From Candidatus Poribacteria bacterium (GTDB taxonomy: Bacteria > Poribacteria > WGA-4E > WGA-3G), in the NCBI GenBank assembly GCA_965205025.1, contig CBDBFU010000002.1, positions 356,089 through 420,088 of the forward strand: a stretch of 64,000 bases of DNA, read 5' to 3'. The position numbers and the translations under genes are program-made. Positions 1 to 44,250 of this stretch are shown here, piece after piece (position 1 is the stretch's first letter; each line of letters begins with the position of its first letter). The notes under the pieces were generated by a model, which was not told the DNA's origin, did not search any database, and was given only the letters and a program-made list of their open reading frames with translations.

Positions 1-687
1 TCTGTTGATCATTTGCAAACCCAATTTCTTGGAGCTCCACAGTTCTTCAAACAGCTGGTTATTGGAAATGCACAACAACAAAAAATGCTTATACAACGTG
101 GATTAGAAGGAGCTTTTGATGTCAGTGACGATACGTTCTACATGGAATATAATTTTAAGCTCTTCAGATGGAAGATGGGTGATACTGAATGGTATGATAC
201 CGGTGTTGAAGAAACTGTTGAATTGTCTGAGAGTAATGCAAAGAAAAAACTAAAACTTGCTGCCTTTGAGAATGCTGTCTACGTCGGGAAACGGAATGGA
301 CATCTCATAGTATCCTTTGATAGGGGAACTAATTGGATAGATCTAACACCAGCCCTACCTTTTTCCGTTCAAACATTCAATGAAATCGTGTTTGTAGGAA
401 CTACTGTGTATGTAGCAACAAATGCTGGTGTAATAGCATCAAGTGATGGGAAGCAGTGGTCAATTGCCTCCAATTCTGATGACGCAAATCTCATTATGGA
501 ACACTTATCTGTTGATGAAAACACCCTTTATGGGATTAAGGACACAGGTATTTATCGCTTGGAAAACGGTATTTGGAAACAGATCGTCACAGAGATACCT
601 GATAAGGTAACTTCTCTGGCTGTTGATGGGAAAACCTTATACGTAGGTACAGAAACCCAAGGCATGCTACACTATACTCTTGAATAA
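1..687 (+). CDS. C-terminal part (5'-truncated by the window) of a BNR/Asp-box beta-propeller protein, probably another ECF sigma-TM-propeller fusion
   Basis: Sequence (FYMEYNFKLFRW..GDTEWYDTG.EET, YVGKRNGHL.VSFD.G.NWIDLTPALPF, SLAVDGKTLYVGT) is collinear with the C-termini of 13426-16521, 17999-21016 and 41239-44250. Confidence 0.8.
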   Translation, partial: SVDHLQTQFLGAPQFFKQLVIGNAQQQKMLIQRGLEGAFDVSDDTFYMEYNFKLFRWKMGDTEWYDTGVEETVELSESNAKKKLKLAAFENAVYVGKRNGHLIVSFDRGTNWIDLTPALPFSVQTFNEIVFVGTTVYVATNAGVIASSDGKQWSIASNSDDANLIMEHLSVDENTLYGIKDTGIYRLENGIWKQIVTEIPDKVTSLAVDGKTLYVGTETQGMLHYTLE

Positions 688-704
688 CATTTAGACATAA
701 TTCA

Positions 705-736
705 GTGGACGGTGTACCAGCACCGTCCATTCCTAC
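705..736 (-). repeat. GTAG-type REP-like palindrome (may also act as terminator)
   Basis: Stem TGGACGGTG/CACCGTCCA followed by TTCCTAC, i.e. GTAGGAA on the minus strand. Confidence 0.55.
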
Positions 737-755
737 CCATCTCCTAATTTACTTT

Positions 756-1015
756 ATACCAATTCTAATTGAAAATGTCTCTTTTTTGTACCACAAACTT
801 TATGAGGATTAAGTTTTAAATTCGGTAATTCCCATTTTCCCAAACTTGGTAGGTTCGGTTTCCTAACCACGGGGAATGCTAAATAGCATTCATACCGTTG
901 ATTCGAATTTCTAACACATTACCGGATTATTATTTTAATCTTCATTCAGTTTGTGACCTGAAAAATGACTACCATAATAACCGCCTAATGAGACAATAAT
1001 TTATAGAATTGGTAT
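756..1015. mobile_element. MITE family A copy (TIR ATACCA(A/T)TTCT) carrying a nested family B MITE
   Basis: Ends TATACCAATTCTA...TAGAATTGGTATA. Near-identical to 9565-9679 apart from an insert at 802-945. Confidence 0.75.
802..945. mobile_element. MITE family B copy (IS630-derived TIRs) with a nested family C palindrome at about 870-904
   Basis: Ends ATGAGGATTAAGTTTTAAATTCGGTAA / TTACCGGATTATTATTTTAATCTTCAT resemble the TIRs of the IS at 8144-9384. Interior matches 55419-55533 and 63606-63720. Confidence 0.7.
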
Positions 1016-1053
1016 AATATCTTAATCTCATTGATAAATACACTCCTAAAATG

Positions 1054-41017: not shown

Positions 41018-41178
41018 TGAAAATTCGGTGGGATACCTACCTCTTAGGATTAGTGGACAATCCAGTTTTAAATTAGCCTACCATACATGATGTTGTATAC
41101 ACTAAACATACAAATCTCACTAAATTGACGCCTATGGTTCTTGTTTTATTCAACCCCAATTAACTATTTTCTATATTC

Positions 41179-41207
41179 TGCACCCAATTTTCACTTAACC
41201 TACGTCT
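41179..41207 (+). promoter_or_regulatory. ECF-type promoter TGCACC-N18-CGTCT
   Basis: Recurrent motif. Confidence 0.65.
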
Positions 41208-41238
41208 TAAAAGTAAAGACAAAAAAACAAGGTGTAAT

Positions 41239-44200
41239 ATGAAAAGGAATGATATTGATTTAATTCACAGTATACTTTCAGGGGATGATTCTGCTTTTGC
41301 TGAACTTGTGGAGAAATACCAGAAGCAGGTGCATGCACTTGCATGGCGTAAAATTGGGGACTTCCATATTGCCGAAGAGATAACACAGGATACTTTCTTC
41401 AAAGTATATCAGCGACTCTCAACACTGAAAAAACCATATCGGTTTGCTGGATGGCTTTATGTGATTGCAACACGTTGTTGCCAAGATTGGCTCCGCAAAA
41501 AACAGATATCTTCAGAGACATTAGAAAATTTCAATAGTGAAGACTTACAACCAGAAGCATACTCACGATATATGGCTGAACAGCAGGAAAAAACAAACGT
41601 TGAAGAACAACGGAAAGTCGTTAAGAAACTTCTGTCTACACTACCGGAAAGTGAGCGGACAGTCATAACTTTGTATTACTTCGGTGAAATGACCTGTGAA
41701 AAAATAAGCGAATTTTTAGGTGTCTCGACAAATACTATCAAAAGTCGTCTTCGTAGAGCGCGGAACCGATTGAAAAACGAAGAAGCAATGATCCGAGAAG
41801 CAATCACGCACTTCCAAATTTCACCTACCCTCACAGAAAATATCATACAAGAGGTATCGCGTCTGGAACCTACCACACCCGCTGCCAGCAAACCCATAAC
41901 CCCCTGGATAATTGCTGCATCAACTACTATCTTGATTGCATTGATGTTAGGGATAGGGAATCAACCCTTGGCGCGTTTCCAGAAACCTTATAGTTTGGAT
42001 GCACTGTCTGAGATGTCGGTTGAACTTGTTGACACCCCGGTTCTATTAAATTTTGATCTGAAGGTGGACTCCCAAAATCAACTTCTAAATTCAAACGGAC
42101 TTAGTAAAAACAGAGATAATGGAGAGAAACCTGATAAGGTTTCCTCGGCTGCTGCACAGGTACAAGAAAAAGATATCTCTGCCAATAAGCAACACTGGAT
42201 TCAATCCGAACCCATCAAAGGAAGCCAGGTAATTAGTTTGCATGCAACACCAGAAGGGGAACTTTACGCTTTTGCTGATAGAAATATCTATAAATTGGAA
42301 ACTGTTGGGAAAGGATGGCAACACATCTTTGATACTACATTACTGAATACTTATTATGAGGAGGGGGAGGCAGTTATGAAAAAATGGGACAATACGCTCT
42401 ATCTGATACTGTCTACAGACCTCTTTGCTTCAAAAGATGATGGTAAAACGTGGGATTTAGTTCACTCATGGCCAAGAGATCTCTGGTATCCTATGGATTT
42501 GGTTCTAACAAAACAAGCATTTTATCTGCTTTTTTATCTAGGAAACCCTCTAACTAACGATCTTTTTCGTTCTGAAGATTCTGGAAAGACATGGGAGGTC
42601 ATAAGTGGTCCGATAGATAGAAACATTCAATCAATTGTTAATATACAGAACACGTTGTTTGCAAGGACAAATTATGCCCTCTACCGGTTTAGCAATGAAA
42701 ACTGGAAACGTATAGAATTTCCAGTGTCTGTTGGATATATCCGTTCAGTTGCTGTAGCGGAAGAAAAGTTATATGTTATGGCATCTGCCAGTGATGATGT
42801 GTTAGATACAGGTAAAGTTTCACAAGGACTTGAACAGGGTTGGTGGATATTTCGTTCTACTAACCTCGGTGAGTCTTGGGATGATATTACCCCAACAAAT
42901 GCTTGGCGTGTAAAGGGGTTGCCACCCCACCTCAAACTTGTCGCAGTTGGTGAGACACTTTTAGCGATGGAACATGGTATGCTCCGGTCTACCGATAGTG
43001 GAAAAACATGGCTACCTCCACAATTATTAGGCACTGTCCCTTCAATGAATGCTAATATAGCTGCTAAAGACTTTGCCGCAGCAGTAAACGAACGTGTTTT
43101 TTATGTTAGTGGGAGAAACGGACTGCATCGTTCCACTGATAGGGGTAAATCATGGAGTAAGATTAATATCGCTGCGGATAAGAGTAAAATAGACACTCTC
43201 ATCGCGTATAAAGGAAACGGTGAAAGGCATAACATACCTCCAACTCTTTATGCAAAGTATGAAGGAAGGATCGTCCAAACTATTGATGAAGGTAAGTCTT
43301 GGAAGGCTGTTCAAATAGAAATTCCAATGACTGATCCTGATAGAGAAAAACCACCAGATATTACACATATAACCGAATTTGATGGTGTTCTCTACGCAAA
43401 GGGAGGTGGATCTTTTAGCAGAAGCAAAACACATATATATAGTGTATCTACAGACGCTAATATACTTGTACCGGTTCAAGGCATACCCATCTTCGACACA
43501 TTGGAATTATATGGCAAATCGGATGAAATAATGAGAAACCAATTTAACGTGCCAGATAAATCGCTCATGGAACAGCTGCAAGAAGAGATTCCTGGAGCAA
43601 AGCAGTTCTTGAATCAGTTAGCAAACACAAACCAAGAAAATAAATTTAAACTTTTTATGCATGGCTCACGAGCTCCATTTGTTGTCAGCGGTGACACATT
43701 CTATATAGAATACAATTACAAACTTTTCCAATGGAAACATGGTGACCCTGAATGGTCAGAAACGGGACAAGAAGAAACAACTGAATTGACTTTGGATATA
43801 GCAGCAAAAAAGCCTAAACTTGCTGCTTTAGGAAACACTATCTATGTTGGGAAACGAGATGGACATCTCGTTGTATCGTTTGATAAGGGAACTAAGTGGA
43901 TTGATCTCACACCGGCACTACCATTTCATGTTAATGACTATAAACAGATTCTGTTTGCTGGAACTACAGTGTATGTAGCAACGGACGCAGGTATTATTAC
44001 ATCTGGTGATGGAAGACGTTGGAATACCATCACAGATACAGCAGGAAACAATCTTATAATGGAACACTTGGCAAATGAAGGAAATACCCTTTATGGGGTC
44101 AAGGATACAGGTGTTTATCGCTTGGAAAACGGTATTTGGCAACAAGTTGTTTCAGTGATTCCTAACAATATAACTTCTCTTGCTGTTGATGGAAATACCT

Positions 44201-44250
44201 TATATGTAGGGACACAAAGCAGTGGTATGCTTCGCTATATTCTTAAATGA
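41239..44250 (+). CDS. ECF sigma-TM-BNR/Asp-box propeller fusion (sigma gene 9)
   Basis: Sigma motifs, TM, S.D.GK.W repeats collinear with gene 5. Confidence 0.9.
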   Translation: MKRNDIDLIHSILSGDDSAFAELVEKYQKQVHALAWRKIGDFHIAEEITQDTFFKVYQRLSTLKKPYRFAGWLYVIATRCCQDWLRKKQISSETLENFNSEDLQPEAYSRYMAEQQEKTNVEEQRKVVKKLLSTLPESERTVITLYYFGEMTCEKISEFLGVSTNTIKSRLRRARNRLKNEEAMIREAITHFQISPTLTENIIQEVSRLEPTTPAASKPITPWIIAASTTILIALMLGIGNQPLARFQKPYSLDALSEMSVELVDTPVLLNFDLKVDSQNQLLNSNGLSKNRDNGEKPDKVSSAAAQVQEKDISANKQHWIQSEPIKGSQVISLHATPEGELYAFADRNIYKLETVGKGWQHIFDTTLLNTYYEEGEAVMKKWDNTLYLILSTDLFASKDDGKTWDLVHSWPRDLWYPMDLVLTKQAFYLLFYLGNPLTNDLFRSEDSGKTWEVISGPIDRNIQSIVNIQNTLFARTNYALYRFSNENWKRIEFPVSVGYIRSVAVAEEKLYVMASASDDVLDTGKVSQGLEQGWWIFRSTNLGESWDDITPTNAWRVKGLPPHLKLVAVGETLLAMEHGMLRSTDSGKTWLPPQLLGTVPSMNANIAAKDFAAAVNERVFYVSGRNGLHRSTDRGKSWSKINIAADKSKIDTLIAYKGNGERHNIPPTLYAKYEGRIVQTIDEGKSWKAVQIEIPMTDPDREKPPDITHITEFDGVLYAKGGGSFSRSKTHIYSVSTDANILVPVQGIPIFDTLELYGKSDEIMRNQFNVPDKSLMEQLQEEIPGAKQFLNQLANTNQENKFKLFMHGSRAPFVVSGDTFYIEYNYKLFQWKHGDPEWSETGQEETTELTLDIAAKKPKLAALGNTIYVGKRDGHLVVSFDKGTKWIDLTPALPFHVNDYKQILFAGTTVYVATDAGIITSGDGRRWNTITDTAGNNLIMEHLANEGNTLYGVKDTGVYRLENGIWQQVVSVIPNNITSLAVDGNTLYVGTQSSGMLRYILK

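Follow-up and report, generated by a model that had tools for sequence, protein, structure and literature searches.

The group of extracytoplasmic function (ECF) sigma factors now called ECF57 was earlier known as ECF01-Gob. In Planctomycetes, ECF57 proteins carry a long C-terminal extension with WD40 repeats behind the ECF core (PMC8999054, PMC8567305), occur with 5.3 paralogs per genome on average (PMC7826278) and are recovered from membrane-type, detergent-soluble fractions (PMC8567305). They are described as having no separate anti-sigma factor, and regulation via the extension has been proposed (PMC8999054). IutY of Pseudomonas putida (ECF243) is a sigma/anti-sigma hybrid activated by sequential Prc and RseP cleavage (PMC5411451), and fused sigma/anti-sigma proteins are also found in actinobacterial groups (PMC8999054). 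Clostridium thermocellum has nine RsgI proteins in its SigI/RsgI systems, whose differing outer modules sense different substrates and which signal by cleavage and RseP (PMC12203970, PMC10328401, 10.1101/2023.06.27.546760). The DNA analyzed here comprises the last 64 kb of contig C2 (CBDBFU010000002.1, positions 356,089 to 420,088) of a Candidatus Poribacteria bacterium (GCA_965205025.1; 5.66 Mb in 33 contigs). We refer to this whole stretch as the window and give window coordinates unless a contig is named. It holds an array of genes in which an ECF sigma factor, a transmembrane (TM) segment and a large sensor are joined.

Nine open reading frames (ORFs) on the + strand lie in one orientation between positions 1031 and 44250 and share a single layout (Table 1). 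An ECF sigma domain (sigma2 and sigma4) is followed by a tether of ~36 residues, one TM segment, the motif FQxPY..A..VE, a low-complexity linker and the sensor. A preliminary description of the window had proposed nine co-oriented genes of common layout, each holding sigma factor, TM segment and sensor in one polypeptide; ORF positions and the N-terminal alignment bear out the former, and the single polypeptide is likewise confirmed. Over the N-terminal 300 residues the mean column identity is 71%, and M184, I185, R186, A188, H191, F192, P221, W222, F246, Q247, P249, Y250, A254, V260 and E261 are among the residues invariant in all nine genes. This numbering counts from start codons that were corrected for four genes, which places the Met at residue 184 and FQxPY at 246-247 throughout. 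The Met was previously called invariant, which holds for the nine window genes and fails for the family as a whole: among the 49 paralogs of the genome the position can be located in 31, with M in 20, V in 6 and I in 5. The array itself begins upstream of the window, with 11 co-oriented family genes in 56 kb (C2:344230-400338). The partial ORF at the window start is 50% identical to residues 585-1004 of gene 5, in pieces that lie in frames 2, 3 and 1 (tblastn).

Table 1. Family genes, predicted ECF-type promoters and candidate internal starts in the window.
Feature	Position	Strand	Evidence or remarks
Further family gene, 3' end, BNR-type propeller	1..687	+	Starts upstream at C2:353822; three frames in assembly
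Gene 1, sigma-TM-WD40, 971 aa	1139..4054	+	Pfam, alignment; corrected start codon 1139
Gene 2, sigma-TM-two LolA-like modules (probable), one frame of 1147 codons without three extra bases	4531..7977	+	Contigs of other runs; corrected start codon 4531
Gene 3, sigma-TM-WD40, 975 aa	9992..12919	+	Pfam, alignment; corrected start codon 9992
Gene 4, sigma-TM-BNR propellers, 1031 aa	13426..16521	+	Pfam, alignment
Gene 5, sigma-TM-BNR propellers, 1005 aa	17999..21016	+	Pfam, alignment
Gene 6, sigma-TM-WD40, 912 aa	21271..24009	+	Pfam, NCBIfam, model
Gene 6 sub-parts	21928..21984 (TM)		sigma2/sigma4 residues 4-180; tether 181-219; TM 220-238; FQKPY at 247
Gene 7, sigma-TM-LolA-like module (probable)-WD40, 1285 aa	24302..28159	+	Module at ~residues 286-700 of listed ORF; corrected start codon 24302
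Gene 8, sigma-TM-WD40, 1135 aa, mosaic	37610..41017	+	DNA and protein segment comparison
Gene 9, sigma-TM-BNR propellers, 1003 aa	41239..44250	+	Pfam, alignment
Promoter of gene 1	1050..1082	+	-35 TGAGAC, -10 GCGTCAC; matrix score 20.9
Promoter of gene 2	4451..4484	+	-35 TGAGAC, -10 GCATCAT, degenerate; matrix score 19.1
Promoter of gene 3	9913..9945	+	-35 TGAGAT, -10 GCGTCAC; matrix score 20.6
Promoter of gene 4	13345..13378	+	-35 CGCGAC, -10 GCGTCAC; matrix score 24.6
Promoter of gene 5	17942..17975	+	-35 TGCACC, -10 GCGTCAC; matrix score 24.5
Promoter of gene 6	21188..21221	+	-35 TGCAAC, -10 GCGTCAT; matrix score 30.4
Promoter of gene 7	24224..24256	+	-35 TGAAAC, -10 GCGTCAC; matrix score 23.5
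Promoter of gene 8	37546..37579	+	-35 TGCACC, -10 ACGTCTT; matrix score 22.1
Promoter of gene 9	41175..41208	+	Sequence identical to promoter of gene 8; matrix score 22.1
AAGGAGGAA, Shine-Dalgarno-like, with in-frame ATG of codon 184, gene 6	21805..21822	+	Candidate internal start
Equivalent codon-184 ATGs, other genes	1688, 5080, 10541, 13975, 18548, 24851, 38159, 41788	+	

The family is widespread in Poribacteria. Each of the 49 paralogs of the genome exceeds 178 bits in a phmmer search, in which the next ECF sigma factor reaches 101 bits. Relatives retrieved with the N-terminal alignment are nearly all from Candidatus Poribacteria, and a threshold of E<=1e-40 detects the family in 133 of the 151 genomes of the phylum. 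For two genera the counts are 36 of 37 and 57 of 57, most of these genomes reaching at least 16 matches; two sister families have 1-6 copies, and two further families (f4 and f5) have no match in any of 9 genomes. The preliminary description had suggested that arrays be counted and compared in related genomes. Five closed or near-closed relatives scored in full contain 36, 23, 29, 20 and 74 copies; the longest co-oriented array has 15 members in 55 kb, and another genome has one of 12 in 48 kb. We further compared 58 foreign loci of up to 13 kb, which were retrieved with patterns from the window subfamily and hence are close kin; 40 of them contain two or three family genes each, and co-orientation holds for all 115 copies. 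The piece made of tether, TM segment and motif finds 233 representatives at E<=0.001 among 1.84 billion when searched alone, and in ~105 of the 150 representatives listed it lies at residue ~176-290, behind a sigma domain. Among proteins clustered at 90%, the N-terminus matches at least 6424 long ones, which NCBI calls either "sigma-70 family RNA polymerase sigma factor" or "hypothetical protein".

The N-terminal domain is recognized as an ECF sigma factor by several methods. Pfam Sigma70_r2/r4 are among the listed matches of genes 2, 4, 5, 8, and 9; WD40 families fill the best 25 Pfam matches of genes 1, 3, 6, and 7, where the sigma domain is seen by alignment and phmmer and, in gene 6, by NCBIfam as well. 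The N-termini of genes 4, 6, and 9 score 102-108 bits against the general ECF model TIGR02937 (cut-off 42.9). Among NCBIfam models the sigma cores of these genes score best against SigW, at levels that stay below the cut-offs of the SigW equivalog models (PRK09641 and TIGR02948; 114-121 against 209 and 103-105 against 243 bits). An AlphaFold2 (AF2) model of the N-terminal 290 residues, computed from an alignment of 40 family sequences, has two helical domains, sigma2 at residues 4-90 and sigma4 at 103-180, and over most of both the 10-residue blocks average 70-92 in predicted local distance difference test (pLDDT). It continues with short helices at 182-191 and 196-210 and the TM helix at 224-246, all of low pLDDT, and nothing is folded beyond. 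Foldseek matches the sigma model best to Bacillus subtilis SigW (5wur; 30% identity, E 4.8e-9), followed by AlgU and RpoE. Moreover, sigma2 and sigma4 are the best conserved parts of the proteins, with 36 invariant columns among 40 paralogs and homologs. Only sigma2 and sigma4 are present, the profile score lies above the cut-off and a cognate two-box promoter exists as a sequence feature, all of which characterize ECF sigma factors.

A single hydrophobic segment at ~residues 220-240 is found in each of the nine genes (Kyte-Doolittle), in agreement with the TM segment assigned earlier, and 41 of the 49 genome paralogs have one TM segment at ~residue 220. Lysine and arginine residues flanking it are more frequent on the N-terminal side in 33 of these 41 paralogs, equally frequent in 6 and less frequent in 2. 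The positive-inside rule thus fits an orientation with a cytoplasmic sigma domain and an outside sensor, which we infer for the family.

Between sigma domain and membrane we searched for a restraining domain. No anti-sigma family occurs in the complete Pfam lists of genes 2, 4, 5, and 9, from which the FecR family is absent too, among the best 25 Pfam matches of genes 1, 3, 6, 7, and 8, or among the best 25 NCBIfam matches of the N-termini of genes 4, 6, and 9. A class I anti-sigma domain comprises ~80 residues and is helical, zinc-binding or RskA-like. Only two short helices of low pLDDT lie between sigma4 and TM segment, and a classical anti-sigma domain is too large for the tether because only ~36 residues separate the two. 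The idea that sensor, anti-sigma and sigma are one protein is therefore not supported in its anti-sigma part. Its companion, that no separate anti-sigma genes lie alongside, stands: the intergenic gaps hold only ORFs of up to 85 aa, none of an anti-sigma family, and no conserved neighbor gene was found across the 58 foreign loci, where candidates recur in 0-3 of 58.

Every gene of the window is preceded by a two-box motif with a -35 box TG(C/A)(A/G)(A/C)C (CGCGAC in gene 4), a spacing of 16-17 nt and a -10 box GCGTCA. Genome-wide the strict two-box pattern occurs 27 times, namely before 16 different family genes, 6 times before other ORFs and 5 times before none, compared to 5 occurrences in a reversed-genome control. 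The strict pattern also hits a WD40 gene and a ribulose-phosphate epimerase, likely by chance. A position weight matrix (PWM) trained on 24 sites of this genome yields 35 sites with a score of at least 20; counted by gene they lie before 28 distinct family genes and 4 other ORFs, with 3 before none (numbers that need not sum to 35), and the control gives 1. In the foreign loci, which lie outside the PWM training, a site scoring at least 16 was found for 102 of the 111 family genes whose upstream 200 nt are included, at a median of 81 nt from the start.

In the same 58 loci the -35 box covaries with three residues of the sigma4 recognition helix. TGCACC is accompanied by T/S/R in 30 of 30 cases and TGCAAC by T/S/Q in 19 of 23, TGAGAC goes with A/N/Y (12 of 13), [AG]GCAAC with T/S/R (16 of 16) and [TA]GTAAC with A/[LI]/H (8 of 8). 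Such covariation would be expected of sigma subfamilies that each recognize promoters of their own. The window promoters fall into three classes (genes 1, 2, 3, and 7; genes 4 and 6; genes 5, 8, and 9). Since none of these classes is limited to one sensor type, a promoter class may receive more than one input.

Outside the family, PWM scores of at least 20 are found for a MoxR-type AAA gene (26.5), an ABC ATPase and two family remnants, too few to define an output. The best of these sites (C12:195124-195157) lies 196 nt ahead of the MoxR-type AAA+ ATPase gene (C12:195353-196369), which also matches the Pfam entry "MoxR-vWA-beta-propeller ternary system" and is, judged by its promoter-like sequence, a possible regulon member. 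A weak lead concerns basal transcription. TGnTATAAT matches the window 8 times (4.0 expected; 4 of 100 shuffles reach 8), and extended -10 boxes TG(G/A)TATAAT at 1010, 9799, 13223, and 17817 (+) precede genes 1, 3, 4, and 5 by 125-200 nt, which puts them 5' of the ECF promoters. These boxes may be basal sigma-70 promoters. A GC-rich hairpin with a T tail at 21118-21138 (+), between gene 5 and the promoter of gene 6, is a likely terminator, though such sites are not above chance in the region.

The sensors were assigned as listed before, with WD40 propellers in genes 1, 3, 6, and 8, BNR/Asp-box propellers in genes 4, 5, and 9, an extra module plus WD40 in gene 7 and two such modules in gene 2. 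The WD40 sensor is a double propeller, and 125 further ORFs of the genome match it. WD40 repeats of genes 6 (23336-23840) and 7 (27695-27975) form tandem arrays of 126 nt with 68-72% likeness in DNA, which points to repeat amplification within sensors; recent, near-identical arrays were considered and rejected since neighboring repeats are just 68-72% alike. For the BNR sensor, the sole relative of solved structure found by sequence is HCF136/Ycf48 (E 8.8e-5), and we claim no enzyme activity from this match.

The extra module of genes 2 and 7 spans ~400 aa and matches no NCBIfam family, while Pfam gives just DUF2092 (E 0.017). Its AF2 model is weak (mean pLDDT 44.7). When this model was searched with Foldseek, the top six matches belonged to the LolA/LolB/RseB superfamily (E 3.6e-6 to 2.6e-4). 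VIA-align, applied to the same weak model, ranked LolA3 first (Z 10.4, root mean square deviation 3.9 A, 167 aligned residues), then 3bk5, 4z48, 3buu, and LolB (Z 10.1-8.4), ahead of an unrelated match at Z 7.7. Atlas leads for the module are PF17131 and MucB_RseB (scores 0.86-0.88). The label LolA/RseB-like given to it earlier is thus backed by fold searches, albeit on a poor model, and the module probably belongs to this fold, an open antiparallel beta-barrel. The double-module layout of gene 2 also occurs in the foreign loci L018, L019, L040/L041, and L047.

Sensors have been exchanged between sigma domains. From ~-90 to +630 the DNA of gene 8 is mostly 92-100% identical to that of gene 9, then ~60%; compared to gene 6 it is 88-97% identical from ~+660 to +960 and 52-77% before. 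Gene 8 is a mosaic, with promoter, sigma domain and tether like gene 9 and TM segment, motif and linker like gene 6, and the protein segment tables agree with this DNA mosaic. All five paralog pairs of the genome that are at least 80% identical in sigma domain and tether have TM-motif segments of 56-70% and sensors of 30-60% identity; in one pair the values are 99, 70, and 36%. In a sigma-domain tree of 35 full-length members (20 WD40, 15 BNR) the sensor class changes 8 times. At least 5 changes are forced by well-supported branches, and shuffled labels give a mean of 11.7, with 12 of 500 shuffles as low as the observed value. Mosaic, pairs and tree show that sensors are interchangeable in evolution, as had been proposed, and place the hotspot at the border of tether and TM segment. 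New receptors arise by tandem duplication and by recombination at this boundary, which re-pairs promoter-plus-sigma modules with TM-plus-sensor modules.

How might such a protein work? We consider it reasonably probable that the family consists of autoregulated one-component ECF receptors of Candidatus Poribacteria that are activated by proteolytic release. Membrane tethering alone would hold the sigma factor inactive; we regard tethering itself as the restraint because no anti-sigma domain is found. A ligand at the sensor would permit a site-1 cut near the conserved juxtamembrane motif, and intramembrane cleavage by the RseP homolog of the genome would follow. The freed sigma factor of ~25 kDa could then join RNA polymerase and increase transcription from its own promoter class and of anything downstream. 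Release is inferred from the IutY precedent, from the conserved motif just outside the membrane and from the proteases of the genome, which encodes an M50 protease with PDZ domains as well as S41 proteases. Obvious candidates for ligands are glycans and proteins of the sponge matrix or the envelope.

Several observations weigh against this proposal. RseP and S41 proteases occur, as the controls show, in most bacteria, and PrsW, the site-1 protease of SigW (the closest solved relative), was not found in the 95.5% complete genome. The tether and the juxtamembrane motif are modeled without confident structure, with pLDDT at ~61 and dropping to 31 from residue 181. Furthermore, the near-exclusive association of promoter and family is partly circular since the PWM was trained on the family's own upstream regions, and targets that have the core boxes only would be missed. 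The covariation of -35 box and sigma4 comes from related genes rather than independent events and is a pattern rather than a statistical test. Finally, the sigma-70 promoter scan is at shuffle level (51 vs. 50.9), the terminator scan gives 9 vs. 15.1, and a look for RNA runs over 13000-22500 listed none.

The genes may encode a second product in addition to the full-length receptor. Translation restart at the ATG of codon 184 would yield a sigma-less isoform of tether, TM segment and sensor, which could act in trans as anti-sigma factor or decoy, either paired with full-length copies or as a competitor for ligand or protease. We regard this as a tentative possibility, on the doubtful side. AAGGAGGAA, a Shine-Dalgarno (SD)-like sequence, lies 4 nt before the ATG in genes 2-6 (5 of 9), AAGGAAGAA takes its place in genes 1 and 7, and genes 8 and 9, which lack an SD box, count against an internal start. 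Of the 115 genes in the foreign loci, 102 allowed the position to be located; 98 of them have ATG there, in 95 cases with a strong SD 5-mer. Codon choice agrees: at codon -4, 80 genes use AAG and none AAA, against 30% AAG among their remaining Lys codons; at codon -3, 98 use GAG and 3 use GAA, against 40% GAG in the rest of these genes; and the codons flanking the SD-like box vary freely. These counts are weakened by the foreign loci being close kin, retrieved with patterns of the window subfamily, and by the 11 of 31 located genes of the genome that have V or I instead, with GTG in just 3 of the 11. Similar GAGG boxes serve annotated starts, and an internal SD-like box can be a pause site instead. 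A natural sigma-less paralog (C2:282220-284802, +; tether-TM-FQKPY-WD40, 860 aa) begins at the segment of the candidate internal start. It has its own near-consensus sigma-70 promoter (TTGACG-17-TATAAT) and no sigma remnant in 1.5 kb upstream. Likewise, 12 of the 150 representatives listed start exactly at the motif Met, although these may be fragments at contig ends.

A different account does without release. The tethered sigma factor would be switched by a conformational or oligomeric change transmitted through the TM segment, as in regulators of the ToxR/CadC type, or it would be held away from RNA polymerase and cleared by turnover. In its favor, no dedicated protease gene is conserved beside the arrays (the trypsin-TPR gene of the window recurs in 0 of 58 loci), there is no anti-sigma domain that would need destruction, and planctomycetal WD40 ECF proteins were obtained from detergent-soluble fractions (PMC8567305). 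A sigma factor, however, has to become part of the RNA polymerase holoenzyme, and an RseP substrate would need its site-1 cut just outside the membrane, which is where the conserved motif lies. We know of no ECF sigma factor that is active while tethered, which also counts against this account. IutY, the sole studied fusion of sigma factor and TM segment, moreover requires Prc and RseP (PMC5411451). On this evidence we consider switching without release unlikely and retain proteolytic release.

A further reading, which is equally speculative and to which we give little weight, would make the array a self-selecting receptor repertoire. With each unit tied almost solely to its own promoter class, a ligand would amplify only the matching receptors, the codon-184 isoform would set the threshold as a decoy or an inhibitor in trans, and recombination at the TM boundary would make new pairings of sensor and promoter. 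If true, this would be a surface repertoire in a bacterial symbiont that resembles clonal selection, with the receptor itself as the main output.

It has to be asked as well whether the proteins are mainly surface or periplasmic "eukaryote-like" WD40/BNR binding proteins whose sigma domain serves self-feedback only or is vestigial. The promoter lies almost only before family genes (28 vs. 4 other ORFs), the genome contains the 125 additional ORFs that match WD40 sensors, and poribacterial WD40 genes have been interpreted as coding for eukaryote-like repeat proteins (PMC3909097). The sigma2 and sigma4 domains are nevertheless the best conserved parts, to the extent of the 36 invariant columns, and exceed the cut-off of the ECF model; covariation of the sigma4 helix with the -35 box would not be expected of a vestigial domain. 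These points make a mere binding role improbable.

Last, a reading of the array as an artefact of assembly or as a set of pseudogenes in decay, which the splitting of both gene 2 and the gene running into the window start over several frames might suggest, is hardly credible given that the gene 2 shifts are absent from other runs and the frame is open without them, that closed or near-closed relatives have co-oriented arrays of 12-15 copies, that all 115 copies in the foreign loci share orientation, and that the remaining 8 genes are open over 912-1285 codons. An assembly chimera had been named as a concern in the preliminary description and can be set aside because relatives carry like co-oriented arrays. 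Gene 2, which this assembly splits over three frames, was compared to contigs of four public runs across 4400-8200. Run contigs that cover the respective site all lack one base at 5921, 6138, and 6371 (5921 and 6138 in X2, at depth 34 of 34, X3, and X5; 6371 in X1, X3, and X5), and each of these bases directly precedes a short stretch of identical letters. Without the three bases gene 2 is one frame of 1147 codons. Hence, it only looks broken because the assembly carries three extra bases, and we rejected its classification as a pseudogene. The assembly thus contains indel errors of homopolymer type, and other "frameshifted" genes such as C2:353822-356775 may be intact.

Unrelated genes also lie inside the array span, namely an IS630-type transposase, three TolB-like PD40 proteins, two small membrane-protein paralogs, a secreted protein and a trypsin-TPR protein. 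The transposase (DDE_3 and HTH, 395 aa; 8182-9369, +) is located immediately 3' of gene 2. Three tandem secreted TolB-like PD40 propeller paralogs follow 3' of gene 7 (28381-31557, +); the 3' end of a TolB-like gene recurs upstream of gene 8 (37326-37452) with 85-88% identity, and a PD40-like ORF of 85 aa is found within 33971-34784, ahead of the trypsin-TPR gene. These PD40 relics look like traces of earlier duplications. Two near-alike proteins of 237 aa (16556-17269 and 32299-33012, +) have an N-terminal membrane helix and a charged, probably coiled-coil remainder without a family match. The former starts 35 nt after gene 4, and relatives accompany family genes in 2 of 58 foreign loci. The trypsin-TPR protein (34785-36983, +) combines a Trypsin_2 domain (HtrA/DegS-like) with ~14 TPR repeats and has no obvious signal peptide. 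TolB-like, trypsin-TPR, secreted and small membrane proteins were considered as parts of the system and dropped, recurring beside family genes in only 0-3 of 58 foreign loci. An ORF of 1262 aa (44371-49294, -) without a Pfam or NCBIfam family faces the end of the array and adjoins an NHL-repeat protein.

Poribacteria are dominant, uncultured sponge symbionts, and the products of their many WD40 genes were assigned to the "eukaryote-like" proteins of host interaction (PMC3909097, PMC8163846). The literature on Poribacteria ECF proteins, sigma factors, and WD40 combined with sigma yielded no published description of this family. PMC6081418 and PMC8163846 contain nothing on it, and the text of Kamke 2014 apart from its PDF tables treats the WD40 genes as eukaryote-like repeats and does not use the word sigma. 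The claim that such arrays have not been described as a system therefore holds for Poribacteria as far as this literature goes, whereas the design as such is already published (ECF57, IutY). Since 20 of the 35 full-length members place a WD40 propeller outside on a tethered sigma factor, part of the WD40 repertoire would be signal input and not effector. At 20-74 units per genome, few known sets of one-component ECF regulators may be larger than these. They offer a natural test bed for the insulation of sigma specificity between paralogs, for control by tethering alone and for sensor swapping, and the parts are small enough for testing in a laboratory host.

How does the family compare to the systems described? 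With ECF57 it shares the C-terminal WD40 extension (genes 1, 3, 6, 7, and 8), the many paralogs and the lack of a separate anti-sigma factor. In contrast to ECF57, it belongs to Poribacteria, its sigma core scores best against SigW-type and not planctomycetal models, BNR and LolA-like sensors are used as well (genes 2, 4, 5, and 9 have no WD40 sensor), and genomes hold 20-74 copies. Moreover, 40 N-termini have one nearly invariant cysteine (C81) and none conserved in sigma4, whereas ECF57 has two, for which a link between sigma2 and sigma4 was proposed (PMC8999054). Like IutY, which is the only experimentally studied model for the proposed mechanism, the Poribacteria proteins unite ECF sigma factor, one TM segment and an outer part in a single chain. 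IutY, however, has a FecR-type anti-sigma part, listens to a TonB-dependent receptor and is a single "unique" gene, while the Poribacteria sensors are large propellers, the genes form expanding arrays and neither FecR nor another anti-sigma family was found.

The SigI/RsgI systems resemble the family in their paralogous units of sigma factor and membrane sensor with swapped outer modules. There, sigma factor and sensor are separate, the sigma factor is of the SigI type, and RsgI combines an N-terminal anti-sigma domain with an autoproteolytic domain next to the membrane; in the Poribacteria family the model shows no folded domain at that place. Bacillus subtilis SigW/RsiW provides the closest solved sigma factor (5wur, 30%) and the best-scoring NCBIfam model and is autoregulated. 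The family promoter is, like the SigW consensus, of the type TGAAAC-N16-CGT. Different from SigW/RsiW are the scores far below the SigW cut-off, the lack of an RsiW-like zinc anti-sigma factor and of a detectable PrsW, and the sigma factor itself being a membrane protein. Relative to all these designs, the distinguishing features are the phylum, the SigW-like core without an anti-sigma domain, the BNR and LolA-like sensors, the 20-74 copies, their organization in arrays, the promoter classes and the recombination breakpoint.

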